The translations under genes were made by a program, and so were the position numbers. A model generated the notes under the pieces. The model had not been told where the DNA came from, searched no databases, and saw only the letters and a program-made list of their open reading frames with translations. DNA of 64,000 nt from a phage: NCBI GenBank assembly GCA_014435945.1, contig GCA_014435945.1_4088.1; one strand, 5' to 3'. Positions 16,179 to 41,635 of this stretch are shown in pieces (the stretch's first letter is position 1; every line of letters starts with the position of its first letter).

Positions 16179-16739
16179 ATGAATGATATTGAGTTATTGG
16201 TACATAAGATTTGCACAATATCGTTAGTGCTGAACAATGCGAATACAGTACAGAGTTCCCTTTTAAGAATTAATAAAGTTGGGAGTAGTTTATATTTGGA
16301 AGTAAAAGCTGGTTTTGCAGGTCAGTACAATGATAAAATCAAAGAAGAAGTTAAGGGAAGTGAAGATGCTTTCATTGAGGTTTGTGCAACAGTTGGTTCA
16401 AATCCAATTTCAGTATCACCGTTAATGCGAAATGAAAATTCAGAATTTAATTCCATTTTTGAAGGTTATTTGTGGTATAATGCTGGAGATGATTATTTTA
16501 TATATCAGAATTCCAAAACGGATTACAGTGAAGAAGGTATAAAATTCATTGATCCTTACAATGAAGCAGAAGTATTTCAGACATCCCTAATATACAATGC
16601 AAATCAAATGAAGTATCTTATGTTGTTTAGTACAATGCATTTGAATCCATTGAAAGATAATTTAAAATTTTTCATTCGTTTAGAATTAGTTGATATTGCT
16701 TATGATCTTTTAATGCAAGGATACAGTTATGAAGTATAA
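16179..16739 (+). CDS. F2 paralog protein
   Basis: F2 module AEVFQTSLIYN; C-terminus DLLMQGYSYEV shared with 16816-17322. Confidence 0.6.
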   Translation: MNDIELLVHKICTISLVLNNANTVQSSLLRINKVGSSLYLEVKAGFAGQYNDKIKEEVKGSEDAFIEVCATVGSNPISVSPLMRNENSEFNSIFEGYLWYNAGDDYFIYQNSKTDYSEEGIKFIDPYNEAEVFQTSLIYNANQMKYLMLFSTMHLNPLKDNLKFFIRLELVDIAYDLLMQGYSYEV

Positions 16740-16809
16740 AATGCTTTATACAAAAGATATGATTTATGTTGAATTAGAAGGCAATGACGATGTATCCATC
16801 AATAGGTAA
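16729..16809 (+). pseudogene. truncated remnant of an MKYKMLYT-type F2 gene
   Basis: 26-codon ORF MKYKMLYTKDMIYVELEGNDDVSINR matches N-termini of 17312 and 17644 genes then stops. Confidence 0.5.
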
Positions 16810-16815
16810 TAATAT

Positions 16816-17322
16816 ATGAATGAGATAGAATTATTAGCACACAAGATTAGTACAGTAATGCTTATGCTCAAGAATAATCATTCTATGCATAAGTACATTT
16901 TTATAGGTGATTTACGCATAGAAGATAGATATGATAAATTATCGTTTATGTTTAAAGATGAAAGTAATGCAAAAGTTTGTTTTGCAGCATTTGCCCAAGG
17001 CAATCCAGAACAAGCATCTCCTGTTATATACGAAAATAGTGAAGGGTATTTGTGGGTCAACACAAACGATTATTTCTTTTATGTTTTGAAACAAGATGAT
17101 GAAGTAGAAGCACGAATTGATTTAATTGATATTAGTACAGATTGTAGTGCTGAATTATTTCAGAAATCGTTATTATACAGTCCTCGTCAAATACATTATC
17201 TAAAGTTATTCAGTTCATTGTACGCGAATCCTTTAATTAAGGGTTTTAAATTTTATATCAAAATTCCGCACCTTTCAAACGTTTATGATTTATTAATGCA
17301 AGGATATAGTTATGAAGTATAA
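16816..17322 (+). CDS. F2 paralog protein
   Basis: F2 module AELFQKSLLYS; paralog of 16179-16739. Confidence 0.6.
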   Translation: MNEIELLAHKISTVMLMLKNNHSMHKYIFIGDLRIEDRYDKLSFMFKDESNAKVCFAAFAQGNPEQASPVIYENSEGYLWVNTNDYFFYVLKQDDEVEARIDLIDISTDCSAELFQKSLLYSPRQIHYLKLFSSLYANPLIKGFKFYIKIPHLSNVYDLLMQGYSYEV

Positions 17323-17623
17323 AATGCTTTATACATTAACATTAATATATGTAGAATTAGAATCCGATTCAGATGCATGGAATTTGGTTAAAGAGGTCGA
17401 TACCAATCAATGGTACATGGCAAATTTAGACGCACAGGTTGTTACGGATTATTTTATAGATTTTAATACATTATCTGAAGAAGAATTTTTCCAAATGCAA
17501 TTGGTGGTTGACATGTACGGGCATGACATGGTAACATTACGAAATATACAGAAAGCCGTTAATGAAATCCAAAGCAAGAAAGATTATGAGGTAGGAGAGT
17601 ATTATGAGATCGACGTACAGTGA
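17312..17623 (+). CDS. F2 paralog protein
   Basis: F2 module EEEFFQMQLVVD then TLRNIQKAVNEIQ. Confidence 0.6.
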   Translation: MKYKMLYTLTLIYVELESDSDAWNLVKEVDTNQWYMANLDAQVVTDYFIDFNTLSEEEFFQMQLVVDMYGHDMVTLRNIQKAVNEIQSKKDYEVGEYYEIDVQ

Positions 17624-17643
17624 AAGCAATGAGTACAATAGTT

Positions 17644-17961
17644 ATGATATATAAAATGCTTTATACAGTATCGGGGATATATGTAGAATTAGAACCCGAT
17701 TATCCAGATGGATGGAATTTTATTAAACGCTCCGATAGAAATACATGGCAAATGGAACATTTGGATAATGACGTAATATTAGACAATTTTGTGGATTTTA
17801 ATACATTATCAGAAGAAGAATTCTTCCAAATGCAATGTGTGCTTGACACAAAAGGATTTGATGTGCTATTATTAAAGAATATACAGAAAGCTGTTAACGA
17901 ATTAATATCCAATGACGAGTTAGGCAAAGTGAGGCTGTTCCATGATCTCGAAGTACAATGA
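17644..17961 (+). CDS. F2 paralog protein
   Basis: F2 module EEEFFQMQCVLD; start MIYKMLYT by paralogy (track 17620). Confidence 0.55.
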   Translation: MIYKMLYTVSGIYVELEPDYPDGWNFIKRSDRNTWQMEHLDNDVILDNFVDFNTLSEEEFFQMQCVLDTKGFDVLLLKNIQKAVNELISNDELGKVRLFHDLEVQ

Positions 17962-18517
17962 AAGCAATGAGTACAATGAAATTCAGTACACCTACGCTAA
18001 TGCAATCCTTATGGGACAAAAGTTAGCTTGTATTGTTGCAGCCTTATATAATGCACAGAAAGATTACAAGCGTCACATCCACAAATGTATTGGTATTATT
18101 CCATCGAAGTACAATACATATATTGCGTGCACGAGTCATTTTGATAAACGATTCAATACACCTGATACCCCAAATGCCCATAGTGTTATTGGTCTTTTGG
18201 ATTTTGCCCCTGGTGCTGTTATTGGAAAGAATGATTTAGAGTACGCATGGTATAATAAAAATGCCCCGTTAGTAATGGTAAAATATGATACAGAAACGAA
18301 CAAAGCAATAGAGTACAATACATATAAATCAGAGGAAGAATTTTTCCAAGGTTCATTGCTTGTACCAGTGCGATTGTTATTTTATAATGTCATAATGAGT
18401 ACAGTACACGATAGTCCATTACACAAGAATCACAAAATTAATTTCAATTTTTGTGCTTATGCGATTGATGGTGTTTATGAGTGCTTAATGGAGGTATTGA
18501 GTTATGAAGCTGAATAA
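17942..18517 (+). CDS. F2 paralog protein
   Basis: F2 module EEEFFQGSLLVP. Confidence 0.55.
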   Translation: MISKYNESNEYNEIQYTYANAILMGQKLACIVAALYNAQKDYKRHIHKCIGIIPSKYNTYIACTSHFDKRFNTPDTPNAHSVIGLLDFAPGAVIGKNDLEYAWYNKNAPLVMVKYDTETNKAIEYNTYKSEEEFFQGSLLVPVRLLFYNVIMSTVHDSPLHKNHKINFNFCAYAIDGVYECLMEVLSYEAE

Positions 18518-18845
18518 TACATTTGATATTAAGAAGTTAAGAGAATGGTTTTATAGTATTGAAATTGAAGCCATTCCTTATCATAGATATGAACAAAGTG
18601 ATTTACAAAGTATTGATATCAGAGAGTTGTACAAATATTATCAGAGTGCATTAGAGATGCATAAGTTATTTTTGAGTACAAATTTCATCCTAAATTACAA
18701 TTTTGAGGAATTTAATAATTATAATTTAGTACAGAAATATGTAGTAGCAAAGTACATGTACAATCAAGGTATCAAAGGTTGCCTCGAATTCAATACCGTT
18801 CTTATTTTAGTTGAGGTAATTTTATGCACCGCATGTCTGATTTAG
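18504..18845 (+). CDS. hypothetical protein (113 aa)
   Basis: ORF in array without clear F2 motif. Confidence 0.5.
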   Translation: MKLNNTFDIKKLREWFYSIEIEAIPYHRYEQSDLQSIDIRELYKYYQSALEMHKLFLSTNFILNYNFEEFNNYNLVQKYVVAKYMYNQGIKGCLEFNTVLILVEVILCTACLI

Positions 18846-19321
18846 AGTTCAGTTTAGATGCAGCCTTTAAATTTGTTCACAAAATAGAAACAATATATCG
18901 TACATTATGTGCAATAACATCAGTATCAAAAGAGTTTGATGTTGGTGAAAGGTATCAGGTGTGGAATAATTCATTTTATAATAAAGAACATTCTGCGACG
19001 GCATTTTATATTTTAGCATTTAATCCCAGCAATTGTTACCCAGAGAAGCATGAACGTTATCCAAATGACGACATGTGGTTTGAGTACAAAGAAGATGCTG
19101 ATATGTCGTCAATTGTAGTTCCTGATGATTTTAATGCACAAGATTTAACAGAAGAGTGGTGGTTCCAGCAGAATTTAGTACATGATGATATTGATTTATT
19201 TTTCTATATAGTGTTTAAAATGCTTTATCACAACAATATAGTTAAAGAAAGTTTATCGTTTTCATGTCTATATATTGATGATTTGTACAATGAAATTCAA
19301 ATAAACATGCCTGTATCGTAA
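18824..19321 (+). CDS. F2 paralog protein
   Basis: F2 module EWWFQQNLVHDD; GAGG RBS. Confidence 0.6.
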   Translation: MHRMSDLEFSLDAAFKFVHKIETIYRTLCAITSVSKEFDVGERYQVWNNSFYNKEHSATAFYILAFNPSNCYPEKHERYPNDDMWFEYKEDADMSSIVVPDDFNAQDLTEEWWFQQNLVHDDIDLFFYIVFKMLYHNNIVKESLSFSCLYIDDLYNEIQINMPVS

Positions 19322-19339
19322 GATATGGGCTTTTTTTGT

Positions 19340-19368
19340 TTGACACGAGTACAAATGCATGGTACAAT
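19340..19368 (+). promoter_or_regulatory. sigma70-like promoter
   Basis: TTGACA 19340-19345, 17-nt spacer, TACAAT 19363-19368. Confidence 0.55.
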
Positions 19369-19394
19369 GTGTAATCATTTTTAAGGAGATACCT

Positions 19395-19943
19395 ATGGAA
19401 AATTTTAAAATACCAGATGATTTCAATTCAGTACAAGAGATGGTACACAAGGTTCATTACATTTTTAATGAATTAATTATTGCCAATTCATCCAGTATGC
19501 AAATTGAGTTAAAGGATATTGATAGAGAAGAAGTTTTTTTGGGTTCCCCAAATTCAATCATTCCTTTTTATGGTCAGGACCGTTTATGGTTCATGAGAGA
19601 TACCCCAATTGACAAATACAAAATACAAAACAAATCAGAGAATGATTTTTCTTATTATTATCTTAAAATTTCATTACAAGTACAAGATATTAGTGCAATG
19701 GGTGAAATAAGTGCAGAGGATTATTTTCAGTACAGTACATTGCATAGTCCAGAAGAAATCTTTGTTGCTATGCTCGTTGCAAAATTGAGCACAGTTGATT
19801 TTGGGACATACCCACATAAATCATTCAAGATTATTATTCCTGCATTCGTCGATCTTTATGATTTCATTGTGCACAAGAAAGAAAGTACAGTGTACGATAT
19901 GTATCGTTCAAATTTCAGTATGATTACAGGGGCATTAAAATGA
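19395..19943 (+). CDS. F2 paralog protein
   Basis: F2 module EDYFQYSTLHS; AAGGAG 7 nt before ATG 19395 (track 19359). Confidence 0.6.
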   Translation: MENFKIPDDFNSVQEMVHKVHYIFNELIIANSSSMQIELKDIDREEVFLGSPNSIIPFYGQDRLWFMRDTPIDKYKIQNKSENDFSYYYLKISLQVQDISAMGEISAEDYFQYSTLHSPEEIFVAMLVAKLSTVDFGTYPHKSFKIIIPAFVDLYDFIVHKKESTVYDMYRSNFSMITGALK

Positions 19944-20548
19944 ACATAGATCAATTAATGAAGTACAGTACAAATGCAATTCCAGTGCTAAGTAAAGCAT
20001 TAGATGCATTCAATGCTAAGTACCCTGAAGGTTCAGAGTTAAATATTCCTTTTACCACAGAGGGGATTGTTGATACGTACATTGTAAACATCAGTAGTAC
20101 AGGTATTGTTTTGAAGCAGAAGTACGGCGAAGGTGAATATTATGGATTGAAGCTGGATAATATTTCAGGAGAGAAAACACCTTATGAGTTTTGGGTTCCG
20201 AATAACATTGAGTCATGGAAAACAAATATTAATAAGAGAGACGAAAGAAATTTACCTCTTGTACAAAATAATGAAAAAAGAATTGACGTATTTTATTATT
20301 ACAGTACAGACCAGTTTCCAGAAGAGATTTATTTAAATTCAGAGGTGCATGAAGATATTGAATCATTTTTCTTTCAGTTATCATTGGTACAGGATATCAT
20401 GCCTGTGCAAATGTTCAGGGATGAAATAAATTTAGCGAAAGAGATTTCGGATATGTTACCTGAATTTAGTGTTCTTTATGGTAGTAGAGCTTTACCTGAA
20501 AATGTATACAAAGAATTTATTTCCATTGTTAAAGGGTTGAATATATAA
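19940..20548 (+). CDS. F2 paralog protein
   Basis: F2 module ESFFFQLSLVQD; ATGA overlap. Confidence 0.6.
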   Translation: MNIDQLMKYSTNAIPVLSKALDAFNAKYPEGSELNIPFTTEGIVDTYIVNISSTGIVLKQKYGEGEYYGLKLDNISGEKTPYEFWVPNNIESWKTNINKRDERNLPLVQNNEKRIDVFYYYSTDQFPEEIYLNSEVHEDIESFFFQLSLVQDIMPVQMFRDEINLAKEISDMLPEFSVLYGSRALPENVYKEFISIVKGLNI

Positions 20549-20549
20549 T

Positions 20550-20744
20550 ATGACCGCCTATGATATCAAACAAAGGCATACGAAGTTTGATTTGTTCACA
20601 TACCAATTCCACAATGATATAGTGAATTTTAACATCAATGCGTCATTGCATCCTACATCACAAGATGATTTTGACAACAGAGTGCTTAACATAGTGGTGC
20701 TTTTGTGTTATAATCATTTCAGTGAATATTTTAACACAAGATAA
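20550..20744 (+). CDS. small hypothetical protein (64 aa)
   Basis: ORF directly after upstream stop. Confidence 0.5.
   Translation: MTAYDIKQRHTKFDLFTYQFHNDIVNFNINASLHPTSQDDFDNRVLNIVVLLCYNHFSEYFNTR
20686..20714 (+). promoter_or_regulatory. candidate extended -10 promoter
   Basis: TTAACA 20686-20691, 17-nt spacer, TGtTATAAT with hexamer 20709-20714. Confidence 0.4.
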
Positions 20745-20757
20745 GGTTGAGGCACAC

Positions 20758-21276
20758 ATGTATCAGGCCAAGTACAATACATCATATGTATTTGCACACA
20801 ACATTTTGAAGATCATCAAAGCGTTAGAGGGTGGATTGCTTAGTCATAAGTACACCAAAGTAGGTGACAATTGGTTCAGAAATGATGATGAGTTCAGAAG
20901 TCATAAGATTGTTTACAGCAATAATTACAGTGCCAATTACCTTCAGGATGTTGCTATGTGCTTCGAATACGTGTTACAGTTCAGGGGTTCCATCAGTCCA
21001 GAGCTAAGAGAACACATGTACATTCGATACCTACCAATGCTTAAGGATGAGAAATCAATATTCAATTCAGTACACCACAGAGTACGAGAGAGAACATTCA
21101 GGGATATTTTAGAAGATGAAGCTGCCTATTTTCAGCAATCATTGATTGATGCTCCTGATGTGTTACAGATGCAGAATTTGTATAATGTATTAGATGCGAA
21201 CATCGATACGGATATCTTTTTTTCCTTAAGTGATTATGAAACATTTTTGGAAGATTTAAAGGAAATAGGATTATGA
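20758..21276 (+). CDS. F2 paralog protein
   Basis: F2 module AAYFQQSLIDA; ATG 20758 after AAGGTTGAGG (track GTG 20722). Confidence 0.6.
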   Translation: MYQAKYNTSYVFAHNILKIIKALEGGLLSHKYTKVGDNWFRNDDEFRSHKIVYSNNYSANYLQDVAMCFEYVLQFRGSISPELREHMYIRYLPMLKDEKSIFNSVHHRVRERTFRDILEDEAAYFQQSLIDAPDVLQMQNLYNVLDANIDTDIFFSLSDYETFLEDLKEIGL

Positions 21277-21617
21277 GTAGATTTTCAGTGTATATAGTGA
21301 ACGTCAGTAAAGATGGTAGTTTAATTGAATTTGATGTAGTTGATAACAATGATAATTCATATGGTATTAAGGTACAGGACAATGATGTACAGTTCAGTAC
21401 AAGGACAAATTTTGAGAATCCAGTCCAAGTTCCGAATTTCATAGAAGATGAAGCTGCACGATTCCAATACGAAACGGCCTTTGATAATGTAGCGATGCAT
21501 ATTATTATGCAACAAAGTTTAGTTCAATTGCTTCAGGTATTCAGACAAAATATATATATACATGAAGTGTCGATTAATGGCATTCAAAGTTCCGTTTTGT
21601 TCGGTACAAATATGTAA
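21273..21617 (+). CDS. F2 paralog protein
   Basis: F2 module AARFQYETAFD; ATGA overlap. Confidence 0.55.
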   Translation: MSRFSVYIVNVSKDGSLIEFDVVDNNDNSYGIKVQDNDVQFSTRTNFENPVQVPNFIEDEAARFQYETAFDNVAMHIIMQQSLVQLLQVFRQNIYIHEVSINGIQSSVLFGTNM

Positions 21618-21627
21618 GGAAAGTACA

Positions 21628-22182
21628 ATGAGTTCAATGAGTTTATTAGATACATTAGAAAAAGACAGAAGTGCCATTAAGAGATTAAAAAATCTTGTCC
21701 AGAGCATTGCGAACAACGCTGAGAAGTTCAGTGACAATCTTAGTATAGGTGATATAACCAGTACAGGAATAAAATCCCTGAAGTCAGATTTATTAATTCA
21801 TAAGGAAGATAAATTATTATTTGTATTGAGTTCAGATTTAATGGTTGCAAGTAATGGTTTCAATTCGATATCAACACAAGATGGTAGCACAGGATTATAT
21901 CTATCACAGGGTGTCCAGACGAACGAACAAAAGTGTTTTAGTTCAGGAGTACAGAATCCCTTTAAGTTCAGTACAGAACAAGCTACAGAGCTTTTAGATG
22001 CATCAGAAGAGATGTTATTTCAGTACAAAACGGTTCATACAGATTTTGAATTACGATGCATGTACGCTGTTAAGCATTATGTTCAGGAGTTCGAGGATTT
22101 AAGTTATCTTTTAGTTCGAACGAATACAAAGAACATTGGTGCATTAGAAGATTACATTTCAAAAGTTGTTAAAGGGTGCTAA
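21628..22182 (+). CDS. F2 paralog protein
   Basis: F2 module EMLFQYKTVHTD; ATG 21628 after AAGGAAAG (track 21562). Confidence 0.55.
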   Translation: MSSMSLLDTLEKDRSAIKRLKNLVQSIANNAEKFSDNLSIGDITSTGIKSLKSDLLIHKEDKLLFVLSSDLMVASNGFNSISTQDGSTGLYLSQGVQTNEQKCFSSGVQNPFKFSTEQATELLDASEEMLFQYKTVHTDFELRCMYAVKHYVQEFEDLSYLLVRTNTKNIGALEDYISKVVKGC

Positions 22183-22191
22183 AGGGTGCTG

Positions 22192-22353
22192 ATGAAAGAG
22201 TTATTTGAAGAACAGTTCGATACATATGTGGATAATATTCTTTATTCTAGCCGTGCTAGTCAACGAGGAAATCGTGCTTACAACATAGATTACCTATTAA
22301 CGGTGCTGAGTTCACAGTACACCTACGCTGTACAGAGGACATATTATGAATAA
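22192..22353 (+). CDS. small hypothetical protein (53 aa)
   Basis: Unlisted small ORF filling gap; begins after a 10-bp tandem duplication AAAGGGTGCT x2. Confidence 0.35.
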   Translation: MKELFEEQFDTYVDNILYSSRASQRGNRAYNIDYLLTVLSSQYTYAVQRTYYE

Positions 22354-22549
22354 TTTTAGAGATGTTGCAAAGGAGAAGTTCAAGTGCAGTTTAGATTACG
22401 GTTTAAATGATTTTCTTACATGCACAATGTACAGGAATGATGATTATGAGCAATCCGTAATTTCGTTGCACAGATATTTCGAAATAATTTATGCAAGATA
22501 TCTTAGAAGGTTAGATGGGATAGGGGATTGGAATTATGATTACGTTTGA
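22346..22549 (+). CDS. small hypothetical protein (67 aa)
   Basis: ORF in array; no family motif. Confidence 0.5.
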   Translation: MNNFRDVAKEKFKCSLDYGLNDFLTCTMYRNDDYEQSVISLHRYFEIIYARYLRRLDGIGDWNYDYV

Positions 22550-22760
22550 AGAGCCGGAAGTGGTATATTGCTTTAGTGTGAAAGGTTTTGAATACATGAT
22601 GGATTCGATTTTGAAGGATACATATTTGGTTCAGATTGAAGTTACAGATAATACAGATAATGCATTACAACGAGTATTGAATATATACGAGAGGACGAGT
22701 CGAAGGCTTTGTGCAATGAAAAGGATTGAAGAAATCAAGCTTTCTAGGCTGAATAAATAG
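22536..22760 (+). CDS. small hypothetical protein (74 aa)
   Basis: ORF overlapping upstream stop. Confidence 0.5.
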   Translation: MITFEEPEVVYCFSVKGFEYMMDSILKDTYLVQIEVTDNTDNALQRVLNIYERTSRRLCAMKRIEEIKLSRLNK

Positions 22761-22957
22761 AGACGTTTCGTTTTCACAGGCCGCAGGAGGGGGGTCAAAA
22801 AAATTTTCGCTGAAAAACATGTTAAGGTATATGTTTAATATAAAGTTTTAAAATGTGTTCACAGAGTACAGTTCATGTTTCCTGAAACAAAAAATACCCC
22901 GCCGCGAACGTTCTCCTTATATTGGAGTTTACCTTATTAATTACAGTTGAGATTAAG

Positions 22958-23335
22958 ATGGAAATAAAATATAAAGAATTTTGTATAGGGACATGGATGT
23001 ACACGGGTGAGTTGATTACGTGTTGTAATTTGTACAAAGGTGATTTAAACTACACAAGGGGCAAGGTTATAAAGTTCTGGAATTCACAATTTTATTTAAT
23101 GGATCTTGGTACTGGATTTAGTTGTAAAGCAACCGATATGCTGGACTATACCTTAATGGATGATGCTGCACTATTTCAGGAGTCATTAGTATTTGACAAG
23201 AAGTACATCTGTACATTAGAAGAGATTGTTGAAATCCAGCGTAGAATTAAATGTATTCACAGGGAATGTATAGATAAATGGTGTAAAACTGGTGAAACTA
23301 ATTTTAGTAATCATTTCAATCTAGGGGAAGAGTGA
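22958..23335 (+). CDS. F2 paralog protein
   Basis: F2 module AALFQESLVFDKKYICTLEEIVEIQRR; ATG 22958 (track TTG 22922). Confidence 0.55.
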   Translation: MEIKYKEFCIGTWMYTGELITCCNLYKGDLNYTRGKVIKFWNSQFYLMDLGTGFSCKATDMLDYTLMDDAALFQESLVFDKKYICTLEEIVEIQRRIKCIHRECIDKWCKTGETNFSNHFNLGEE

Positions 23336-23691
23336 TGGAATTTGATTTTGTAATATCAGTACATTCTTTTAAGAACAGTTTTCAGTACTTTTGTAATTTA
23401 AACAAAGGTGATTTAATGCACAGTGCAAATGAGTATATTCATTACACTCAGGGTAAATTTACATTCATTGATTACAGTTCATTACAGTATCCGCATCAGG
23501 ATATGCCGGATTATACAGTACTTGATGAGGCTGAACTATTTCAGGAGTCATTAGTATTTGATAAGAAGTACTTGTGTACATTTGAAGAAGTAATTGCAAT
23601 ACAAAATGAAATGAAAGAGTATGACTCTTTGAATAAAGGCAATGTCAGTATTAATCAAGAATACAAATTCAATATAGGAATTCCAGAATGA
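23332..23691 (+). CDS. F2 paralog protein
   Basis: F2 module AELFQESLVFDKKYLCTFEEVIAIQNE; tandem triplet member. Confidence 0.6.
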   Translation: MMEFDFVISVHSFKNSFQYFCNLNKGDLMHSANEYIHYTQGKFTFIDYSSLQYPHQDMPDYTVLDEAELFQESLVFDKKYLCTFEEVIAIQNEMKEYDSLNKGNVSINQEYKFNIGIPE

Positions 23692-24032
23692 CATTTGATT
23701 TTTCTATGTTTATACCTAAGATTAGTACTTCACTGGAAGTGTATTGCAATCTTAACAAAGGTGATTATGAACACAAAATGGATCAGTACATTAAATTTAA
23801 TGGTTCTTACTTTAGCTTCATTGATTATCAGACCAAAGGAACAGTTGTAGAAAATATGAAAGACTATACAACAGTACAGGGTGAGGCTGAAATATTTCAA
23901 GAGTCATTAATATTTGACAAGAAGTACTTGTGTACACTAGAGGAAGTAATTGAACTCCAACAGAAGATGAAAGAATATAGAAGAATCTGTATAGAGACTG
24001 ATTCCAAAGATAGGTATTGTTTTAAGCTATGA
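23688..24032 (+). CDS. F2 paralog protein
   Basis: F2 module AEIFQESLIFDKKYLCTLEEVIELQQK; tandem triplet member. Confidence 0.6.
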   Translation: MTFDFSMFIPKISTSLEVYCNLNKGDYEHKMDQYIKFNGSYFSFIDYQTKGTVVENMKDYTTVQGEAEIFQESLIFDKKYLCTLEEVIELQQKMKEYRRICIETDSKDRYCFKL

Positions 24033-24214
24033 ATAAAAAAGAACAAATGGAATCATTCATGAATACAATGCTTCGACGATTCGTAATTGATATTAGACAT
24101 AACAACAGCATTAGGAATGACATGTACTTCGGTACATATGATATTAGTGAATTGTATATAGCTAATATTCACATGGTGTACCGAGATTATATCAAGACAC
24201 AACACAGGAGTTGA
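24029..24214 (+). CDS. small hypothetical protein (61 aa)
   Basis: ATGA overlap with upstream gene. Confidence 0.5.
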   Translation: MNKKEQMESFMNTMLRRFVIDIRHNNSIRNDMYFGTYDISELYIANIHMVYRDYIKTQHRS

Positions 24215-30498: not shown

Positions 30499-30524
30499 CA
30501 CCCTCCAAATCTTTGTGATATAAT
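30495..30524 (+). promoter_or_regulatory. sigma70-like promoter with extended -10
   Basis: TTGACA 30495-30500, 18-nt spacer, TGaTATAAT with hexamer 30519-30524; -10 lies in inverted repeat TGTGATATAA / TTATATCACA. Confidence 0.6.
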
Positions 30525-30557
30525 CTCTTTATATTAATTGTAAAGGGTTATATCACA

Positions 30558-33833: not shown

Positions 33834-34344
33834 AGATGATATTCTAATCAGACTAATCAACAGTCTGTTAAATTTCGTGAATAGTGGCAGTGATACACAC
33901 AATGTAGGTGACATTGAATTCAAATCATTTGGAATGTACGGTGAGGAAAAAACATATTATGCATCAATGAAATTCCAAGATTATTATGAAATGTTAATTG
34001 CGTTAACATACGAAGATGTGGACCCAAGATGGAGTTCCAGTATTTCTCTGTCGAGAATGGTAATTCGTAGTAAACATCGTTACATTTCGTCAAAGAATAC
34101 TCCTAATTTGTTTGATATTGTTTTGAATGAAAATACCAACCCCCCATCTAAACATGATATCGTACCTTTAACTGATGAAGTACAGTTTCAATTGAGTACC
34201 ATTTGTGATGAAGATGTGATATCATGTATGAAAATTTACGAGAAGATTGGTAGTGATATCCCTAAGAACTATTACATAACAATAGATGGAACGTACCTCC
34301 GAGATGAGGCTCTAGCGTACATTGACAGCGTTTTACCAAAATAA
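33826..34344 (+). CDS. F2 paralog protein
   Basis: F2 module EVQFQLSTICDED; start at ATGAATAA overlap (track 33760). Confidence 0.55.
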   Translation: MNKDDILIRLINSLLNFVNSGSDTHNVGDIEFKSFGMYGEEKTYYASMKFQDYYEMLIALTYEDVDPRWSSSISLSRMVIRSKHRYISSKNTPNLFDIVLNENTNPPSKHDIVPLTDEVQFQLSTICDEDVISCMKIYEKIGSDIPKNYYITIDGTYLRDEALAYIDSVLPK

Positions 34345-34366
34345 AGACCCTTATGGGTCTTTTTGT
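34343..34366 (+). terminator. rho-independent terminator
   Basis: AAAGACCC-ttat-GGGTCTTT stem-loop followed by T-run. Confidence 0.65.
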
Positions 34367-34375
34367 GTTTAGTGC

Positions 34376-34404
34376 TTTACATGAGCATTCAGGTGTGTTA
34401 TAAT
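34376..34404 (+). promoter_or_regulatory. sigma70-like promoter with extended -10
   Basis: TTTACA 34376-34381, 17-nt spacer, TGtTATAAT with hexamer 34399-34404. Confidence 0.55.
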
Positions 34405-34431
34405 CGCTTTTAACAGAGTACAGGAGAAGAT

Positions 34432-34995
34432 ATGAGTACTGAATTAATTAAAGAAATCACATTGTTGGTAAAGCATTGTTTTAAGTTCATTGATGATAAT
34501 GGTTCACGCCAGTACATTAAAGTTAATGAGAAATATAACATTAACGTCCTAAAGAATGAAACCGTTAACAGTTATGCAAACATTGAGTTAGATGTTGAGG
34601 ACAAATACACAGCATTACACATCATTTCGTCCGGCGATAGAAAACAAGATTATCGTTCTACATTTTATGATGATAGTGTTACTGTTGGTTATAAATTTCA
34701 TAAAAATAAAATTGCTTATAAGAATACATACACACATGAAGTAATTGAAGAGTACAATTATAAAATTAAAAAAGACGAGTACGATGTACTTTTATTCAAT
34801 GCGAACCTCATACACAACGCTGGTACTGTTCGCAATCTTATGTTAGCATATGAAATTCCAAAGATTATAGAAAGAAATGAATTGATAATCTTTAAAACTA
34901 TATTAAAATTCAGTACAGAAGAATTAGAAGATCTAGTACTGGCTCTTAAGACGTTCATCAATGAACATGTACCTGTTAAATTAGAGGACTTATAA
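34432..34995 (+). CDS. hypothetical protein, degenerate F2-like
   Basis: ATG 34432 after CAGGAG; 187-aa ORF. Confidence 0.55.
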   Translation: MSTELIKEITLLVKHCFKFIDDNGSRQYIKVNEKYNINVLKNETVNSYANIELDVEDKYTALHIISSGDRKQDYRSTFYDDSVTVGYKFHKNKIAYKNTYTHEVIEEYNYKIKKDEYDVLLFNANLIHNAGTVRNLMLAYEIPKIIERNELIIFKTILKFSTEELEDLVLALKTFINEHVPVKLEDL

Positions 34996-35579
34996 TGCAA
35001 GCTGAACACATTCAAATTATGAAATTGATGCATGACATTGCAGAACTATCTGAAAAGCACAACATTACTGAACATGAGCCTATTGGAAATTATCGTCTTA
35101 AAGTTGAATGCAAATCACCATATCGTTTTGGTTCAGTAGTACTGGAGTCTTATAAAGTTTACGATTATGGAACGACGAAAAAAGGTTCATGGGATACTAT
35201 GGCAATGTATATCCGCACATCAAGGCATAGTGAGCAAATCGGTTCCATTACTCCAAACATGATATTTGTCAATGCTTTACACGAAGATATTAATCGAATT
35301 GTTGAATCTAATTTTGATGACGTAGAGAATGATACATATTTGGAAATTCCACCAGAACTAGATCAATGTGAAGACATTCGCGAAGGATACATTTTTCAGA
35401 GATCAGTACTTGACAACTTCAAGGAATTTGAGTACATGATGCTTTGCTATGAAACTGCAAAAGCTATTGACACTGGTGAATTGGTAATGTATAGTAAGTT
35501 CATTAACTGTGAATCCGATACATTAAAAGAGCTACACACGGCAATCAAAAACATCAAGGATACATATGAACGCTTATAG
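34995..35579 (+). CDS. F2 paralog protein
   Basis: F2 module EGYIFQRSVLDN. Confidence 0.55.
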   Translation: MQAEHIQIMKLMHDIAELSEKHNITEHEPIGNYRLKVECKSPYRFGSVVLESYKVYDYGTTKKGSWDTMAMYIRTSRHSEQIGSITPNMIFVNALHEDINRIVESNFDDVENDTYLEIPPELDQCEDIREGYIFQRSVLDNFKEFEYMMLCYETAKAIDTGELVMYSKFINCESDTLKELHTAIKNIKDTYERL

Positions 35580-36144
35580 TTATATGACAGCCCGACACCA
35601 ACAGCTATATGATATCAGTACAAAGATGCTACACATTGTTGGTAGTGCCAAAGAAATTAACAAACATTACCTCATTCGTGATGTGTCATTTTCATCTAAA
35701 TGTTTGTCCAAAGAATATTACGATCACGGTATTCTTACTATTTCTGGTGCCAGGAATATTTGTATTGTAAAAAATAATAGTAAAAGTAATGAAGAGTGCG
35801 AGATTAGATCCGATATCCAAATTAATGATGATGGAAGTTTTTCACACCATCCATTTCATATTAGTACTGTTGGTGTTTTATATAATATTAAAGTAATATT
35901 CGGTGATGAAGAGTATAAGTTAAAAGCTATCAATCCAGAATCAAGTACAGTTGATGAAGAACTGTTTCAGATGAGCACCGTTATACCTGAAGAGGTTCTT
36001 AGTACTGTTGTTTTTTGTAGTTTAATTTATCACACATACAAAAAGAACCAGTTCGATTTCCACATTTTAGGAACGTACATCTTCAATACTTTGAATGTTG
36101 ATCGTTTAAAAGCATTAAATGCAGCAATGGATAAGGTGCTATAA
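35566..36144 (+). CDS. F2 paralog protein
   Basis: F2 module EELFQMSTVIPEE. Confidence 0.6.
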   Translation: MNAYSYMTARHQQLYDISTKMLHIVGSAKEINKHYLIRDVSFSSKCLSKEYYDHGILTISGARNICIVKNNSKSNEECEIRSDIQINDDGSFSHHPFHISTVGVLYNIKVIFGDEEYKLKAINPESSTVDEELFQMSTVIPEEVLSTVVFCSLIYHTYKKNQFDFHILGTYIFNTLNVDRLKALNAAMDKVL

Positions 36145-36572
36145 TGACAAGAGATGATTGTTTGTACATATGGGATATAATTGAAACTACACTTTCAAAT
36201 CCAGAAAATTATAAAACAAAAAAAAGACAACGACACAAAATATGGATAGATTTGTTCGTTGAGGGCATACACGCAGTGACTATTTGGGATTCACCGAGGG
36301 CATCATCATCTACTCTGTTGGACAATGAATGCATTGATTGCATTAATTCCAATTTTCATCTCCACGGTACTACATATTTCGGCACATTTCTGGATATTGA
36401 AAGTAAAGATGATATTGATTCACTTGCTTTACAATACGGAGTACTGTATGATACTAAATTAATTTACGATTTAGTACTAGCTTCTTATGTGTATAAATTA
36501 ATGATGAAATACAATCACATTTCTGTATCAGTTTATACTAAGGATATTCTTTCATTAAGAGACAAAACATGA
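36144..36572 (+). CDS. hypothetical protein, degenerate F2-like
   Basis: ATGA overlap; weak motif SLALQYGVLYD. Confidence 0.5.
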   Translation: MTRDDCLYIWDIIETTLSNPENYKTKKRQRHKIWIDLFVEGIHAVTIWDSPRASSSTLLDNECIDCINSNFHLHGTTYFGTFLDIESKDDIDSLALQYGVLYDTKLIYDLVLASYVYKLMMKYNHISVSVYTKDILSLRDKT

Positions 36573-37075
36573 GTTTATTAAATGCACGAGAATTAGTTGA
36601 GATGTATGAGATCTTATCTTCATATAAAAATTCCCCAAAAGATGTAATTCTAAACAAAAAGTTCCATGTCAATGTTGATCATATGAAAAATATAGATATG
36701 ATTTCTTTAGTGGAAAGTCGCAAATCGGGTATTGAGCGTGATATCATGCGTTTGATTTATATTACCAAACCATCATATACTAATGATAGTTCAATTAGTA
36801 ATGAGACGTTTTTGTACACTCCTTATACTGATTGTACTTTAGTTTCAATGTCTAATCAGAAACAAGATACTATCCAATTCATCAATACCAGTACTGATAA
36901 CATTGAAGAAAATGAATTCCAAAACAATACATTAAGTTCATGTAGTAGTGTTATAACCTTTATGTCATATCTGTGGTCAATCAAATCAAATGCAATTGTA
37001 TATAGTTCTAATTACACACAAGATAGTATTGTTGAATCATTTAAAGTTCTAAAGGAATACTATGAAAATAACTAA
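36569..37075 (+). CDS. F2 paralog protein
   Basis: F2 module EENEFQNNTLSS. Confidence 0.55.
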   Translation: MSLLNARELVEMYEILSSYKNSPKDVILNKKFHVNVDHMKNIDMISLVESRKSGIERDIMRLIYITKPSYTNDSSISNETFLYTPYTDCTLVSMSNQKQDTIQFINTSTDNIEENEFQNNTLSSCSSVITFMSYLWSIKSNAIVYSSNYTQDSIVESFKVLKEYYENN

Positions 37076-37643
37076 TGATTTTATTAGAAGCTTAGTGCAC
37101 CCTATGCTTGGTGTTATGAAAAAATTACAAACTCTACCTGAAGACAACGATTACAAGTTTAATCGTTTTGATTCAGATGTGTTTTGTATTGAAATGGAAA
37201 TTAATAACAATCGTTATTTTCATTTAAAATTCAAAGAATCGTCGAGTTCGCACTACAACTTTGACATGAATTTTAAAATAAGCAATGATATTGAAGAAAA
37301 CGCAATATCAAATCATATTAGCAGAAATGGTTTCATGCATAGAACTAATATGTTCAATAATAAAAACAGTATTATATCTAAATGGAATCATCAATTCACT
37401 AAAATTTGTGATATTGATTGCAGTACATTTGGTGAAGAACAATACTTTCAGTTAAGTACAATACATGAACTTCCACCATATGATTGTGTAAAAACATGGT
37501 TTGATATTCATAATATAATTGATGATGCAATCGTACTTCCATTTGGGTTGTCAATATCATATACTGCACCTAAAACGTTTGTTTTTACTGAAGATATGAT
37601 TATGAAAAAGATATGGGCGATGATCCCACTTATGCTTGATTAA
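37062..37643 (+). CDS. F2 paralog protein
   Basis: F2 module EEQYFQLSTIHELP; paired with next gene. Confidence 0.6.
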   Translation: MKITNDFIRSLVHPMLGVMKKLQTLPEDNDYKFNRFDSDVFCIEMEINNNRYFHLKFKESSSSHYNFDMNFKISNDIEENAISNHISRNGFMHRTNMFNNKNSIISKWNHQFTKICDIDCSTFGEEQYFQLSTIHELPPYDCVKTWFDIHNIIDDAIVLPFGLSISYTAPKTFVFTEDMIMKKIWAMIPLMLD

Positions 37644-37654: not shown

Positions 37655-38206
37655 ATGAATCAAAGTCATGATCTTTTTAAATTATGTGCATCCAAAGATG
37701 TGGAAGGATGGGCAGATAAAATCAATACAATTATTAACCGTTATCTTGGCTTCTGTGCACGTTCACGAAGTGAAGGTTCAATGCGTTTCCAAATAACCAT
37801 GACAATCGATGGTGTTACGATTTATGTCAACGAAGAACGTCTTGGTATTAATCTCTATGATAGTTGTGTCTTTGCTATTCACCAGAAAATGGGGGCAGGT
37901 TGGGGTTGTAATAATATGAACACCAATGCTTTTTTCTGGGTAGGTCATAGCAACACAGTACTTGATCCTTCAAAGAAATCAAACCTTTTAGATGATAATT
38001 TGGTATATGATTTAGCTTACTCTGAAGAACAACATTTCCAGTTAAGTACAATACATAGCTTAGTTCAATATGAAGATTGTATCAAAGCATTAGAATTATG
38101 CCATTCACTTGAACTTAAAGAAAAATTGATACAAATTTACCCATTGTTCTTCCATGAAGAAGTACAATGCACACTAGATCATATTTTATATGGGTACGAC
38201 AAATGA
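37655..38206 (+). CDS. F2 paralog protein
   Basis: F2 module EEQHFQLSTIHSLV. Confidence 0.6.
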   Translation: MNQSHDLFKLCASKDVEGWADKINTIINRYLGFCARSRSEGSMRFQITMTIDGVTIYVNEERLGINLYDSCVFAIHQKMGAGWGCNNMNTNAFFWVGHSNTVLDPSKKSNLLDDNLVYDLAYSEEQHFQLSTIHSLVQYEDCIKALELCHSLELKEKLIQIYPLFFHEEVQCTLDHILYGYDK

Positions 38207-38805
38207 GAAAAAGTTATCAAGAAGCTATTGACCTAATTCGAGAAGTTATTAAGGTGGCTCCTGGTGCGATAGCATTCAAGAAGTCCCTATATAAAAAGTA
38301 TGGCTCTATGTCAAGTATGTGCTGTCAAAAGAAACGTAGTAAATTCACTACGCAGTACTGGCACGATTCTATTATCCTGAGTAATGAACATCAGCGTATT
38401 TTAACAATCGAATCAGTAGATAATCAATATGGTGAAGGAATGATTTGTGTTCCTGACTATGATGAAATTAATTTCAATTGTGGAGATTATGAGACAACAT
38501 TATTATTACACGAGGGTTACCCTGAAGGTGATGTAATGGCAGAGTATAATCCAAAAACCAAAATACTGAAACATGGTATGCAGTTCAAAATCAATAATAA
38601 AGATGATGTGGAAGCAGCACTAATGCAACTTAGTACTAGTGAACCTATCACTATTGATGTAGAAGAGTTATGGGGCATCATTTCAGTACTTAATGAGTGT
38701 TATAAAATTAAATCATTACATAAGTACTCTATCATTTTACATACTAATTGTGCAATGATAAAATGCAAGAACATACAAGAGATGGTGGTTCCAGATGAAC
38801 TTTAA
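38203..38805 (+). CDS. F2 paralog protein
   Basis: F2-like EAALMQLSTSEP; start at ATGA overlap (track 38167). Confidence 0.55.
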   Translation: MRKSYQEAIDLIREVIKVAPGAIAFKKSLYKKYGSMSSMCCQKKRSKFTTQYWHDSIILSNEHQRILTIESVDNQYGEGMICVPDYDEINFNCGDYETTLLLHEGYPEGDVMAEYNPKTKILKHGMQFKINNKDDVEAALMQLSTSEPITIDVEELWGIISVLNECYKIKSLHKYSIILHTNCAMIKCKNIQEMVVPDEL

Positions 38806-39379
38806 AGAAATAGAAAGTAAAATTAAGTACTTCAAAGATATTAAAAAACTTTGGGAAAAGTATAAAATTGATTATCAGTTCCAAGATGATGATACGGTTC
38901 AAAGCATTGATATTAATATTCGTGTGAAGTTCAAGAATGGCAATTATGGCGAAGTTAAATTGAATGCTATTGGTGTATTCCTTAAGGATTATGATGGTTC
39001 TTCACTCGCTCAATTCGATTTCACACCTGATCCTGATGATATGTTATTGAGTGAAGTCAATGCATATGACCTTGAGATGTTTAATGGTAAACCTTTACTA
39101 TTCCGCTTATCAGATGAATGGGATGAGATTTACTACACATACAAAGATGGTGTGATTCGAGACGTAAATGATGAAGTAGTAAATGATATGGAAGAACGTC
39201 TATTTCAAGAATCATGTGTGTCATCGGAGTCATATACATATCAATATCTACTTGACATGTTCGATTTGTATAGTAAAATAGATTCAGAAATGAGTACATT
39301 GGGTATTCATTATCTTACAATCAACGACTTTGCACAACTTGAAACAGCGGTTAAAGCCCTGGTCAAAGTACTGAAATAG
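38795..39379 (+). CDS. F2 paralog protein
   Basis: F2 module EERLFQESCVSSE. Confidence 0.6.
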   Translation: MNFKEIESKIKYFKDIKKLWEKYKIDYQFQDDDTVQSIDINIRVKFKNGNYGEVKLNAIGVFLKDYDGSSLAQFDFTPDPDDMLLSEVNAYDLEMFNGKPLLFRLSDEWDEIYYTYKDGVIRDVNDEVVNDMEERLFQESCVSSESYTYQYLLDMFDLYSKIDSEMSTLGIHYLTINDFAQLETAVKALVKVLK

Positions 39380-39388
39380 GAATGAATA

Positions 39389-39802
39389 ATGAAACTGTAT
39401 CATGCGAGTACTGTAAAAATTGATAACTTTTATATCCCGTATGGTGGCCTTCATATGGGAGGTAAACACAGTGCTTTAGAAGCTGCATTACGCAAACTGA
39501 GAAGCCCACTAAACGTCGTTGACGCTGATACAGTATACTTGCATACATTAGAAGTTGATGTTGATAACGTGCTTCTATGGACGGATATGGGCAGTGATGA
39601 TGAATGGCGTGGAGTGATTGAGTACTGCGAAATTAACGGCTATGATGCAGTTCAGTACCAAAACGATTACGAACCAGATACAGTTCCTAGCTATATGATT
39701 TGGGATACGTCTAAGGTTCGCATTATTGAAGTTGATGCGATGCATATGGATGAAGCTGAAATGATCATCGAAGATTTCCTTGATGAATATGAAGGTGTAT
39801 AA
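39389..39802 (+). CDS. hypothetical protein (137 aa), not F2
   Basis: N-terminus MKLYHASTVKIDNFYIPYGG; distinct from neighbours. Confidence 0.55.
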   Translation: MKLYHASTVKIDNFYIPYGGLHMGGKHSALEAALRKLRSPLNVVDADTVYLHTLEVDVDNVLLWTDMGSDDEWRGVIEYCEINGYDAVQYQNDYEPDTVPSYMIWDTSKVRIIEVDAMHMDEAEMIIEDFLDEYEGV

Positions 39803-40320
39803 TGATTGAACCTATGACAGTACTAGCACGTACTAAATTATTATTGAAGATTGGTGAGATATTCACTGATATTTTGTACAGTGGGATTGATATACATGAA
39901 TTAGGCATTAAGCAACCGTGGGAAATAACCAAGTTCTCTGCGTTCTATCGTTTATCATATAAAGGGGAAACGGTTCTGGACTGGAACCCCAAAGCCAAAT
40001 TCATGGAATATGCGGCGTTATATGGAAGCAATGGTGGTATAACAAATAATTTTAAAGAAATTAAAGTCCTAATTGGGTCAAAGGAATTTAATGATCTACT
40101 ATATCCAGAATTTAAGTTAACAGAAGAATTAATATTTCAGTACTCATTGATTTTAAAAGATCTTAATGATTTAAAGTACTACAAAGAGTTAGTAGATATT
40201 TTTATTAATACTCGACTTTCAAAAGATATTGTGATATTCTGGTATGTTGAGTATGTTACAGAGGAATTGCTTGAAGAATTTCTTCTAAATATGACAGCAA
40301 TCAAGGAGAAGTTATGTTAG
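39802..40320 (+). CDS. F2 paralog protein
   Basis: F2 module EELIFQYSLILKD. Confidence 0.6.
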   Translation: MIEPMTVLARTKLLLKIGEIFTDILYSGIDIHELGIKQPWEITKFSAFYRLSYKGETVLDWNPKAKFMEYAALYGSNGGITNNFKEIKVLIGSKEFNDLLYPEFKLTEELIFQYSLILKDLNDLKYYKELVDIFINTRLSKDIVIFWYVEYVTEELLEEFLLNMTAIKEKLC

Positions 40321-40787
40321 ATATTTTAGGAAACATCGATACAGCAAATTATTTTATTCAAGATGCACTGTTCAATACAGTACAGAAAGGGTTGGATGTA
40401 CGATGTAATATCCATCAGGGAGATGGGTATTTTGTTGATATCACTGAAACACGCAAGAACGTGTTCAATTTAAACATTACAACATTAGCACGTCAGAACA
40501 TTGCACGTATTTTGGTCAATAAAGATGAAGTAGTTCTTCGTTATAATTCCAAATTCTTGTTCACATACAAGAAGAAGACTGACATGTTCAGTACTAATTT
40601 GTTTGATGAACCCTTCAATCTGGAAGACTTAGAAGCAACTTTCTTTACACAGAACACTATGCTGAAATTCAATGATGTTGAATTTTCATCAGAAGTAATG
40701 TCTGAAACACTACAAATGGTTAAGGTAGTATTCTATGCTTTTCAACAGTTTAACGAAGAACGAAACAAGGTTAACAACAACAGATGA
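40314..40787 (+). CDS. F2 paralog protein
   Basis: F2-like EATFFTQNTMLKFND. Confidence 0.55.
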   Translation: MLDILGNIDTANYFIQDALFNTVQKGLDVRCNIHQGDGYFVDITETRKNVFNLNITTLARQNIARILVNKDEVVLRYNSKFLFTYKKKTDMFSTNLFDEPFNLEDLEATFFTQNTMLKFNDVEFSSEVMSETLQMVKVVFYAFQQFNEERNKVNNNR

Positions 40788-41148
40788 ACTAATCGCGGCG
40801 ATGGGAGCCAATGAGAAATACTTCAATGGGATTCATTTTTTTAAAACGGATCTTAGTGAAAGTAAAGTACTATATGTGTATGGTTCCCAGTACTGCATTG
40901 TTACAAAGCACCCCGACGCGATTTCACTAAAATTTAATACTTATTCAAAAAACTTCTTGACGATTAATAAAAGCAATGTTACTATGTCTGGTATAGGGAA
41001 TCAGGTTGTTGAGATTCCTTTGGACTCAATTGATTCTATTGAGTTCTTTCAATACGAGTGCTTAGGTGTTGATTTTGGTACGGTCAGTACTGAATCTATG
41101 CGAACATTAATTAATCTACTTAAAGGTAAAGTTCATGCTTTTAACTAA
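40735..41148 (+). CDS. F2 paralog protein
   Basis: F2 module SIEFFQYECLGVD; AAGG RBS; 53-nt overlap with upstream gene. Confidence 0.5.
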   Translation: MLFNSLTKNETRLTTTDELIAAMGANEKYFNGIHFFKTDLSESKVLYVYGSQYCIVTKHPDAISLKFNTYSKNFLTINKSNVTMSGIGNQVVEIPLDSIDSIEFFQYECLGVDFGTVSTESMRTLINLLKGKVHAFN

Positions 41149-41635
41149 TTCGATGAAGAATTCATTTAAAATTATCAAAGAAATACTAAATGGTTCTAAA
41201 AATCATAGTGGGTCTTCCTTTACTAGTGACCAGATCCAACACAGTACAAAGGATTGTACTGTAATCTTTGGGTTACATAGTCTGCGTTTGACAATAGTAA
41301 ATAATATTGATAACACAGCAATTGTAATCACCCCATGTCATATTCAGAATGAAACTGGTGTATACTTACACCACATGGGGACTGTATTCTACATCTTCAA
41401 TACTGAAGAAAATATTGTTAAAGAATACAACACACTCAATGTTGATGCGGGTGAGTTATTTCAATTGAGTACTGTCAATGATTGTAACTTCAGTGACAAT
41501 GCAGAAGTACTTCCATTGTTTCTAAGTCTTCTCAATAACATGGAAAAACTAACCACTGCATACAACAAAAATGACGTACCGCAAGCAGTATTGAATATCA
41601 CCGAAGCAATGGAGAAATACAAAGCTGTGACCTAA
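41135..41635 (+). CDS. F2 paralog protein
   Basis: F2 module AGELFQLSTVNDCN. Confidence 0.55.
   Translation: MLLTNSMKNSFKIIKEILNGSKNHSGSSFTSDQIQHSTKDCTVIFGLHSLRLTIVNNIDNTAIVITPCHIQNETGVYLHHMGTVFYIFNTEENIVKEYNTLNVDAGELFQLSTVNDCNFSDNAEVLPLFLSLLNNMEKLTTAYNKNDVPQAVLNITEAMEKYKAVT

Follow-up and report, generated by a model that had tools for sequence, protein, structure and literature searches.

The phage DNA analysed here, a stretch of 64,000 nucleotides (nt) from contig GCA_014435945.1_4088.1 that we call the window, carries a long tandem array of small open reading frames (ORFs) whose products share one short peptide block, with the core E-E-x-[FY]-F-Q and a Ser two residues after the Gln. The question raised by this locus is why a block so similar to the recognition sequence of Gln-directed viral proteases is retained in dozens of strongly diverged paralogues. 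A preliminary description of the locus had weighed a shared processing or sorting signal against a purely structural role, which it held to be at least as likely. The evidence now favours the structural role, as two AlphaFold models place the motif in a helix inside a domain. We suggest, with moderate confidence, that the motif is a structural keystone of the predicted fold in a fast-evolving and probably early-expressed multigene family.

The array was counted on non-nested + strand ORFs of at least 95 amino acids (aa) between 13300 and 41700. It comprises 56 consecutive, tightly packed ORFs of 95-212 aa at 13380-41635 (+), of which 46 carry the motif and about five a degenerate form of it; some five others are unrelated inserts (Table 1). 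An iterated hidden Markov model (HMM) made from the members retrieved 45 ORFs of the window at E<0.01, 44 of them belonging to the array. The family also occurs outside the interval 16179-41635 originally assigned to it, with three members to the left and one or two at 52735-53999, 11 kb downstream of the array.

The looser pattern, found in 46 of the 56 array ORFs, reads [S/T/D]-E-E-x-Φ-F-Q-x-S-[L/T]-[V/I/L]-Φ-[D/N], where Φ is a hydrophobic or aromatic residue. A strict pattern ([ED] x2-3 [FM]Q x [..][..]) is present in 42/56 ORFs and E-x-x-Φ-F-Q in 29/56; shuffling the residues of these proteins yields 0.99 and 0.44 matches on average. When the 46 members are numbered from the Gln (position 0), the upstream part consists of S15, T8 or D7 at -6, E36 at -5, E28 or A8 at -4, a variable -3 (E18), L14, Y13, F6 or I4 at -2 and F45 at -1. 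The Gln itself, which would be P1 of a cleavage site, is present in 46/46. Position +1 is variable (Y10, E9, L7, Q5, N5, M3, G3) and is followed by S36 at +2, L23 or T17 at +3, V18, I15 or L9 at +4, an aromatic residue or H (Y/H/F/W) at +5 and D19, N6 or P6 at +6. From the Gln to the C-terminus there are 31-70 residues, with a median near 50. The core proposed in the preliminary description, E-E-x-[FY]-F-Q-[EQYNG]-S, is therefore real (46/56 against about one in shuffled proteins) and its Ser is correctly placed, but Leu is the commonest residue at -2, Leu and Met also occur at +1, and the block was cut too short: it runs on for five residues as S-[LT]-[VIL]-Φ-[DN]. Four degenerate ORFs of the array, at 28662, 34432, 36144 and 40314, retain the architecture with FT, FN or LQ in place of FQ. 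As a side remark, the S/T-E-E-E at the start of the motif resembles, in sequence only, an acidophilic (CK2-like, S/T-x-x-E) phosphorylation site, and the kinase-like ORF and the phosphoesterase listed in Table 1 are encoded in this region too.

The same block marks the family far beyond the window. By megablast the window belongs to the Asteriusvirus group of Escherichia coli jumbo phages (PBECO4, 121Q, phAPEC6, CMSTMSU; 348-386 kb). Positions 16179-41000 share 97-98% identity with vB_Ec-M-J, WPEC3 and CMSTMSU and about 85% with the PBECO4/121Q/phAPEC6 branch, and all genes under this match are annotated as 'hypothetical protein' in the relatives. The stretch of vB_Ec-M-J that is matched by window positions 1-8494 bears a feature annotated 'Direct Terminal Repeats', therefore the array lies near a genome end. 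Megablast found no DNA matching 16179-24200 in PBECO4, Ecwhy_1, EC.P1 and UB, hence the left part of the array has been replaced or has strongly diverged between strains. The gene content of the array varies between close relatives, and the fEgEco12 paper describes hypothetical-rich gene blocks as the most variable ones (PMC13070987).

Related loci were sought with an alignment of a 9-sequence subset. The family, the motif and co-oriented tandem arrays recur in phAPEC6 (44 members, gp404c-gp466c), in the Klebsiella phage RaK2 (at least 30 within ORF363-438), in the IMG/VR contig L008, a distant relative of the Salmonella 7t3 / Erwinia pEa_SNUABM_47 group (at least 25), and in the metagenomic contig L004 (about 15-20), for which the phage collection gave no match at either the DNA or the protein level. 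A profile of the C-terminal module gave 101 matches at E<1e-3 among 1.84 billion representative proteins. Two of these, P0028 (997 aa, the best-scoring) and P0058 (773 aa), are translations of long tandem DNA repeats with a unit containing ...LFQYSVI... or ...TFQHPLIL... and were dropped. The remaining matches have 49-224 aa, many share only 25-45% identity with any member of the window, and almost every one has [ST]EExΦFQxS[TL][VIL][YH][DN]. A search with a gappy full-length alignment returned Asteriusvirus proteins only. In a pool of 131 representatives of less than 60% identity, drawn from the window, phAPEC6, RaK2 and metagenomes, F is present in 129/130, Q in 129/130, S in 117/131 and the two E in 109/130 and 97/130, while +1 is free; the other conserved columns are hydrophobic only and have helical or strand periodicity.

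Family members have no model in Pfam or NCBIfam, a PDB sequence-profile search with them returned nothing, and their BFVD matches are only uncharacterised proteins of 121Q, RaK2, GAP32, Serratia BF and Yersinia fHe-Yen9. We found no description of this family in the literature on Asteriusvirus and RaK2 or in jumbo-phage reviews; the RaK2 paper reports that about 10% of the RaK2 gene products are paralogues. The motif is the diagnostic signature of a large paralogous family, undescribed but already sequenced, which is specific to RaK2-like jumbo phages.

The constraint on the block was examined at both levels. For the conserved E, F, Q and S, the choice among synonymous codons is that of the background (GAA/GAG, TTT/TTC, CAA/CAG), and the motif Ser is encoded by both AGY and TCN codons. 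Over 37 orthologue pairs compared with phAPEC6, the pooled ratio of non-synonymous to synonymous substitution rates (dN/dS) is 0.14 for the motif, compared with 0.27 on its N-terminal side and 0.22 on its C-terminal side, and the motif dS of 0.71 is as high as that of the flanks. Therefore, with free synonymous variation and an unreduced dS, the constraint acts on the protein. Single orthologue pairs have 27-96% amino-acid identity and dN/dS of 0.06-0.6; the non-family neighbours to the right have dN/dS mostly of 0.03-0.19. The family ORFs are real genes under purifying selection and are fairly fast-evolving.

What the block does in the protein is indicated by two predicted structures. The long member at 25126-25614 (162 aa) was modelled by AlphaFold2 with an alignment of 37 window paralogues, giving a mean predicted local distance difference test score (pLDDT) of 87 and a predicted template modelling score (pTM) of 0.83. 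The model consists of a helix at residues 3-22, seven strands within 28-97, which is the variable part, a short helix at 99-103, the motif E-E-Y-Y-F-Q-N as helix 109-115 in blocks of pLDDT 97-98, and then helix 121-135, strand 141-144 and helix 145-152. The short member at 23332-23691 (119 aa), modelled by AlphaFold with a separate 14-sequence alignment, reached pLDDT 85 and pTM 0.81 and has five strands, the motif helix 66-75 (E-A-E-L-F-Q-E-S-L-V), helix 84-101 and strand 109-113, its motif again lying in high-pLDDT blocks (95, then 83). In both models the motif helix stands after the variable β-sheet and before the C-terminal helices, therefore it is located inside a compact α+β domain and not in a linker. 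No solved structure matches the predicted fold.

These models, together with the conservation pattern, allow us to propose how the motif may hold the domain together. In the models, the motif forms an α-helix after a variable antiparallel β-sheet; it is succeeded by an amphipathic helix of greater length and a β-strand ('FYLD'), and long members end in one more helix and have an additional helix at the N-terminus. From the conservation pattern, the S/T/D at -6 may act as the helix N-cap, with E-E-(E) filling the first helical turn, and Φ(-2), F(-1), L/T(+3), V/I(+4) and the aromatic +5 would belong to the hydrophobic core. Free variation is confined to positions -3 and +1, which are one helical turn apart and would thus face the solvent. 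Hydrogen bonds from the invariant Q and from the Ser at +2, either buried or capping, probably hold the turn that leads into the following segment, and D/N at +6, which precedes the next helix in the long model, would cap that helix. The helical scaffold would then stay constant, with diversification falling mainly on the β-sheet half.

The family proteins, 103-229 aa in length, are mostly acidic (median isoelectric point 4.9) and would be cytoplasmic; no signal peptides or membrane segments are visible in their sequences. The best σ70-consensus sites of the region, with 11-12 of 12 matches, fall in the few intergenic gaps (13931, 19340, 20686, 30495, 34376, 43488); the one at 30495 has an extended -10 TG, and two directly follow terminator-like hairpins. 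The family genes are probably transcribed early by host RNA polymerase, and the proteins would serve host takeover or counter-defence within the infected cell.

Several points weigh against this interpretation. That F and Q are buried, and that Q and S form the proposed hydrogen bonds, is read from periodicity rather than from atomic coordinates. Near-invariant polar E, Q and S among sequences of 10-25% identity exceed what most purely structural motifs display, and they could mark a shared functional surface. Membership was set by profiles in which the motif dominates, so the conservation counts are partly circular, and degenerate members with FT, FN or LQ are present in the array. The total of promoter-like matches in the region is not above that of shuffled sequence, therefore the promoter evidence is suggestive only, and it is from such consensus matches that early expression is proposed. 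The host-takeover or counter-defence function of the members is likewise proposed rather than observed.

The near-invariance of the polar residues leads to the alternative that survives best, although we consider it rather unlikely. The helix would still be part of the fold, but its polar face (E-E, Q, S) could be a shared docking surface that binds one partner, a host hub protein or a phage machine, in all paralogues, and the variable β-sheet would select different targets by an adaptor or F-box-like logic. One would argue for this that the only conserved polar residues of the family sit in the motif and that they are conserved across genera with no alignable DNA, including RaK2, L004 and L008. 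Moreover, relatives encode ClpP-like, HslV-like and Clp-ATPase proteins. A cluster at 80543-85721 of fEgEco12 lies 2.5-8 kb beyond the right end of the window and contains two ClpP-like genes and one HslV-like gene: by Pfam and PHROGs, g207 is ClpP (1e-41), g214, annotated 'head maturation protease', is weakly ClpP-like, and g216 is HslV-like. The Clp ATPase Gp327 is encoded at about 168 kb. However, a helix that begins with S/T-E-E-E, and D/N ahead of the following helix, represent common capping patterns, for which a partner is unnecessary; any partner is hypothetical, the family has no fold or sequence similarity to any known adaptor, and the co-occurrence with Clp/HslV was examined in fEgEco12 only. 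As an observation in its own right, the compartmental protease set of fEgEco12 is unusually rich for a phage.

A more specific version of docking appears very improbable to us. The roughly 50 paralogues would form a phage adaptor repertoire, in which the E-E...F-Q.S helix docks all members on one machine, most temptingly the phage Clp-ATPase, ClpP and HslV set, and each β-sheet captures a different host protein. If true, this would be F-box-like targeted degradation or inhibition of host proteins, e.g. defence factors, in a bacteriophage.

Still less probable is that a Gln-directed (3C/NIa-like) or other processing protease cuts at the motif, or that the motif serves to sort the variable N-terminal parts. 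The likeness to ENLYFQ/S pointed out in the preliminary description is literal but superficial. In favour of this reading, 12 members match E-x-x-Y-x-Q, the Q is invariant and the phage lineage encodes several proteases. The strict TEV (tobacco etch virus) consensus ExxYxQ[GS] is matched by two members only, 26786-27232 and 31037-31519, and the residue after Q, which would be P1', is large in 43/46 members, in agreement with the first observation, being Gly in 3/46 and Ser or Ala in none. Both models predict the motif with high confidence as a helix within one compact domain, and the N-terminal helix of long members belongs to the same predicted domain, therefore cleavage would split the fold and release nothing.

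The annotated proteases of the lineage do not help this reading either. The statement that no protease gene is evident in the window agrees with Pfam, which found none among the 12 window ORFs of at least 174 aa outside the array (59151-59747, 198 aa, was left out). The proteases in the fEgEco12 annotation table are g207, g214, g216, the Clp ATPase Gp327 and the T4 gp21-like prohead protease Gp348, which was matched to PDB 5JBL and has counterparts in phAPEC6 (gp227c) and RaK2 (gp092); they are compartmental or gp21-like, and none is sequence-specific and Gln-directed. T4 gp21 cuts after Glu, not Gln. The same table has no 'cysteine' or 'serine protease' entry, about 490 hypothetical proteins of the full genome being outside the profile scan. 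Although annotated 'peptidase', g432 encodes, according to Pfam, an Rv2179c-like exoribonuclease, and it was taken off the protease list.

Neither does the family appear in virions. The phAPEC6 virion proteome contains no family member, its list jumping from gp347 to gp549 past gp404c-gp466c (PMC7247149), and the RaK2 virion proteome contains none either, its list jumping from gp275 to gp493 past ORF363-438 (PMC3622015 Table S3). A capsid-targeting role is therefore unlikely. An N-terminal targeting peptide with a Glu-directed cleavage motif was not found: the block is internal and Gln-centred, and the N-termini of short and long members differ. The proposed release of N-terminal domains is thus not supported, given the helix inside the domain, the mostly large P1', the kinds of protease annotated and the absence from two virion proteomes. 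The protease idea can be set aside, which spares proteomics built around it; the literal TEV sites in two members remain a caveat for expression with TEV-cleavable tags.

Finally, that the block is retained as DNA or RNA, for instance as micro-homology promoting recombination between paralogues, which the tandem layout and variable array content would suggest to be frequent (PMC13070987), has next to no probability and was ruled out as an explanation of the conservation, since codon choice at the conserved residues is background and dS in the motif is unreduced.

The structural reading is thus the one with which we describe the locus, and its features are collected in Table 1. The genes flanking the array fit an early or counter-defence region. 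Dam methylase, RNA ligase 1 and PNKP are counter-defence functions, as is known from T4.

Table 1. Features of the window (member, array ORF of the family bearing the motif; TG as noted at promoter-like sites)
Feature	Position	Strand	Remarks
Weak protein-kinase-like ORF	2243-2884	+	flanks array
Short member	13380-13718	+	SPEEYFQESLVWD; left of 16179; HMM
Promoter-like site, σ70 consensus	13931-13959	+	TTGACA-17-TATAGT with TG; intergenic gap
Short member	14208-14558	+	SEEEEFQYLLVHD; left of 16179; HMM
Short member	14568-14879	+	QEEELFQYSLIYD; left of 16179; HMM
Unrelated inserts (about 5)	starts 15125, 15848, 18504, 39389, 41678	+	not family
Member	16179-16739	+	NEAEVFQTSLIYN
Member	16816-17322	+	CSAELFQKSLLYS
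Member	17312-17623	+	SEEEFFQMQ..
Member	17620-17961	+	SEEEFFQMQ..
Member	17942-18517	+	SEEEFFQGSLLVP
Member	18824-19321	+	TEEWWFQQNLVHD
Terminator-like hairpin	19309-19330	+	gap between two members
Promoter-like site	19340-19368	+	11/12, TG; follows hairpin, same gap
Member	19359-19943	+	SAEDYFQYSTLHS
Member	19940-20548	+	IESFFFQLSLVQD
Promoter-like site	20686-20714	+	11/12, TG; gap 20548-20722
Member	20722-21276	+	DEAAYFQQSLIDA
Member	21273-21617	+	DEAARFQYETAFD
Member	21562-22182	+	SEEMLFQYKTVHT
Three short members (137, 119, 114 aa)	22922-24032	+	D[ED]A[AE]LFQESLVFD
Modelled short member, 119 aa (one of these three)	23332-23691	+	motif at nt 23524-23562
Member	24216-24686	+	motif
Member	24683-25123	+	motif
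Modelled long member, 162 aa	25126-25614	+	SEEYYFQNSTVYN at nt 25447-25485
Member	25592-26035	+	motif
Member	26032-26346	+	motif
Member	26346-26789	+	motif
Member	26786-27232	+	literal TEV consensus EEGYFQG
Member	27229-27762	+	motif
Member	28075-28671	+	motif
Degenerate ORF	28662-29264	+	..MFTN..; FQ replaced
Member	29270-29629	+	motif
Member	29619-29957	+	motif
Member	29908-30498	+	motif
Promoter-like site, perfect σ70 consensus	30495-30524	+	TTGACA-18-TATAAT (12/12, TG); gap 30498-30558
Member	30558-31040	+	motif
Member	31037-31519	+	literal TEV consensus EEMYFQG
Member	31512-31874	+	motif
Member	31858-32271	+	motif
Member	32259-32753	+	motif
Degenerate or doubtful ORF	32737-33279	+	in array
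Member	33276-33833	+	motif
Member	33760-34344	+	motif
Terminator-like hairpin	34343-34362	+	gap 34344-34432
Promoter-like site	34376-34404	+	11/12, TG; follows hairpin, same gap
Degenerate ORF	34432-34995	+	LFNA; FQ replaced
Member	34995-35579	+	motif
Member	35566-36144	+	motif
Degenerate ORF	36144-36572	+	ALQY; FQ replaced
Member	36569-37075	+	motif
Member	37062-37643	+	motif
Member	37655-38206	+	motif
Member	38167-38805	+	motif with LMQ
Member	38795-39379	+	motif
Member	39802-40320	+	motif
Degenerate ORF	40314-40787	+	FFTQ; FQ replaced
Member	40735-41148	+	motif
Member	41135-41635	+	motif
Dam-type N6-adenine methyltransferase	46444-46968	+	flanks array
Probable outlying member, 192 aa	52735-53313	+	GLPEHFQIGTLYD; PEHFQIGTLYD; weak HMM match
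Outlying member, 229 aa	53310-53999	+	SEEEHFQLMMMRA; SEEEHFQL; HMM E 4e-12
T4 Rnl1-like RNA ligase	54261-55403	+	flanks array
Polynucleotide kinase-phosphatase (PNKP)	56226-57158	+	flanks array; tRNA-repair pair with RNA ligase
Calcineurin-like phosphoesterase	60539-61297	+	fEgEco12 annotates serine/threonine-protein phosphatase

Some observations were made on stretches that do not belong to the family. The insert at 15848-16177 (+), 109 aa, has a signal-peptide-like N-terminus, MNKIILALTFILSMFSNTVQA, and no family motif; judged by this N-terminus, its product is probably an exported protein outside the family. The insert at 39389-39802 (+), 137 aa, belongs to phrog_11632, a group of unknown function; phage ph0011 has an orthologue with the annotation 'putative ADP-ribosyl transferase', and the product gave no Pfam match and no match in a PDB sequence search. 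The largest break of the array, 740 bp at 22182-22922, has no ORF of at least 80 aa, the only one being of 74 aa at 22536-22760; besides small ORFs, phAPEC6 has an ORF with the annotation 'amidohydrolase 3' in the corresponding area. Very small ORFs of 70-90 aa form a second tandem run at about 7800-12700 (+), with recurring peptides, QNEMKYLT.DE and ..LFQ.LPY. (10728, 10948, 11174) and ..IALQ.YIKS (7835, 8044); these peptides suggest a further paralogous family.

Tandem multigene families of early phage proteins are of a known kind, and it is its size, the conservation of the array across genera and the unmatched fold that make this one moderately interesting. It takes about 20 kb, or about 6% of a phage genome of 350-386 kb, for about 50 small proteins, and its array is conserved across RaK2-like jumbo phages of Escherichia and Klebsiella and in uncultured phage contigs.

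Comparison with existing classifications shows how the family has been divided so far. Window members match PHROGs 9317, 12674, 15629, 13866, 19795, 34636, 30625 and 32531, all of 'unknown function', at E 1e-50 to 1e-155, and these eight profiles cross-match one another. PHROGs thus splits one superfamily into many unannotated groups, and the shared motif and common fold are unrecorded there. That separate 'hypothetical' groups form one superfamily, recognisable by a simple diagnostic motif, is useful to annotators and offers experimenters a defined target.

The sites of TEV NIa and picornain 3C are alike in having Glu at P6, an aromatic residue at P3, Phe at P2 and Gln at P1. They differ in that P1' of our motif is usually Y, E, L, Q or N, that the segment is predicted here to be helical and integral to the fold, and that the phage lineage has no annotated chymotrypsin-like Cys protease and no polyprotein context; the likeness is best taken as coincidence. 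Substrates of T4 gp21 have an N-terminal targeting peptide that is cut after Glu. The lineage likewise encodes a gp21-like prohead protease, but the motif of the family is instead internal and Gln-centred, and its members are not in virions.

A further parallel comes from general knowledge of eukaryotic viruses and is an analogy, not membership. The MGF360/505 families of African swine fever virus and the host-range and immune-evasion families of poxviruses have no sequence or fold relationship to the phage family, and the host here is bacterial. They are alike, however, in consisting of dozens of divergent tandem paralogues near a genome end, with a shared scaffold and variable surfaces, a content that differs between close relatives and proteins that stay outside the virion. 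From its acidic products, promoter-like sites, neighbouring genes and variable content, the family looks like an early, intracellular host-interaction repertoire.

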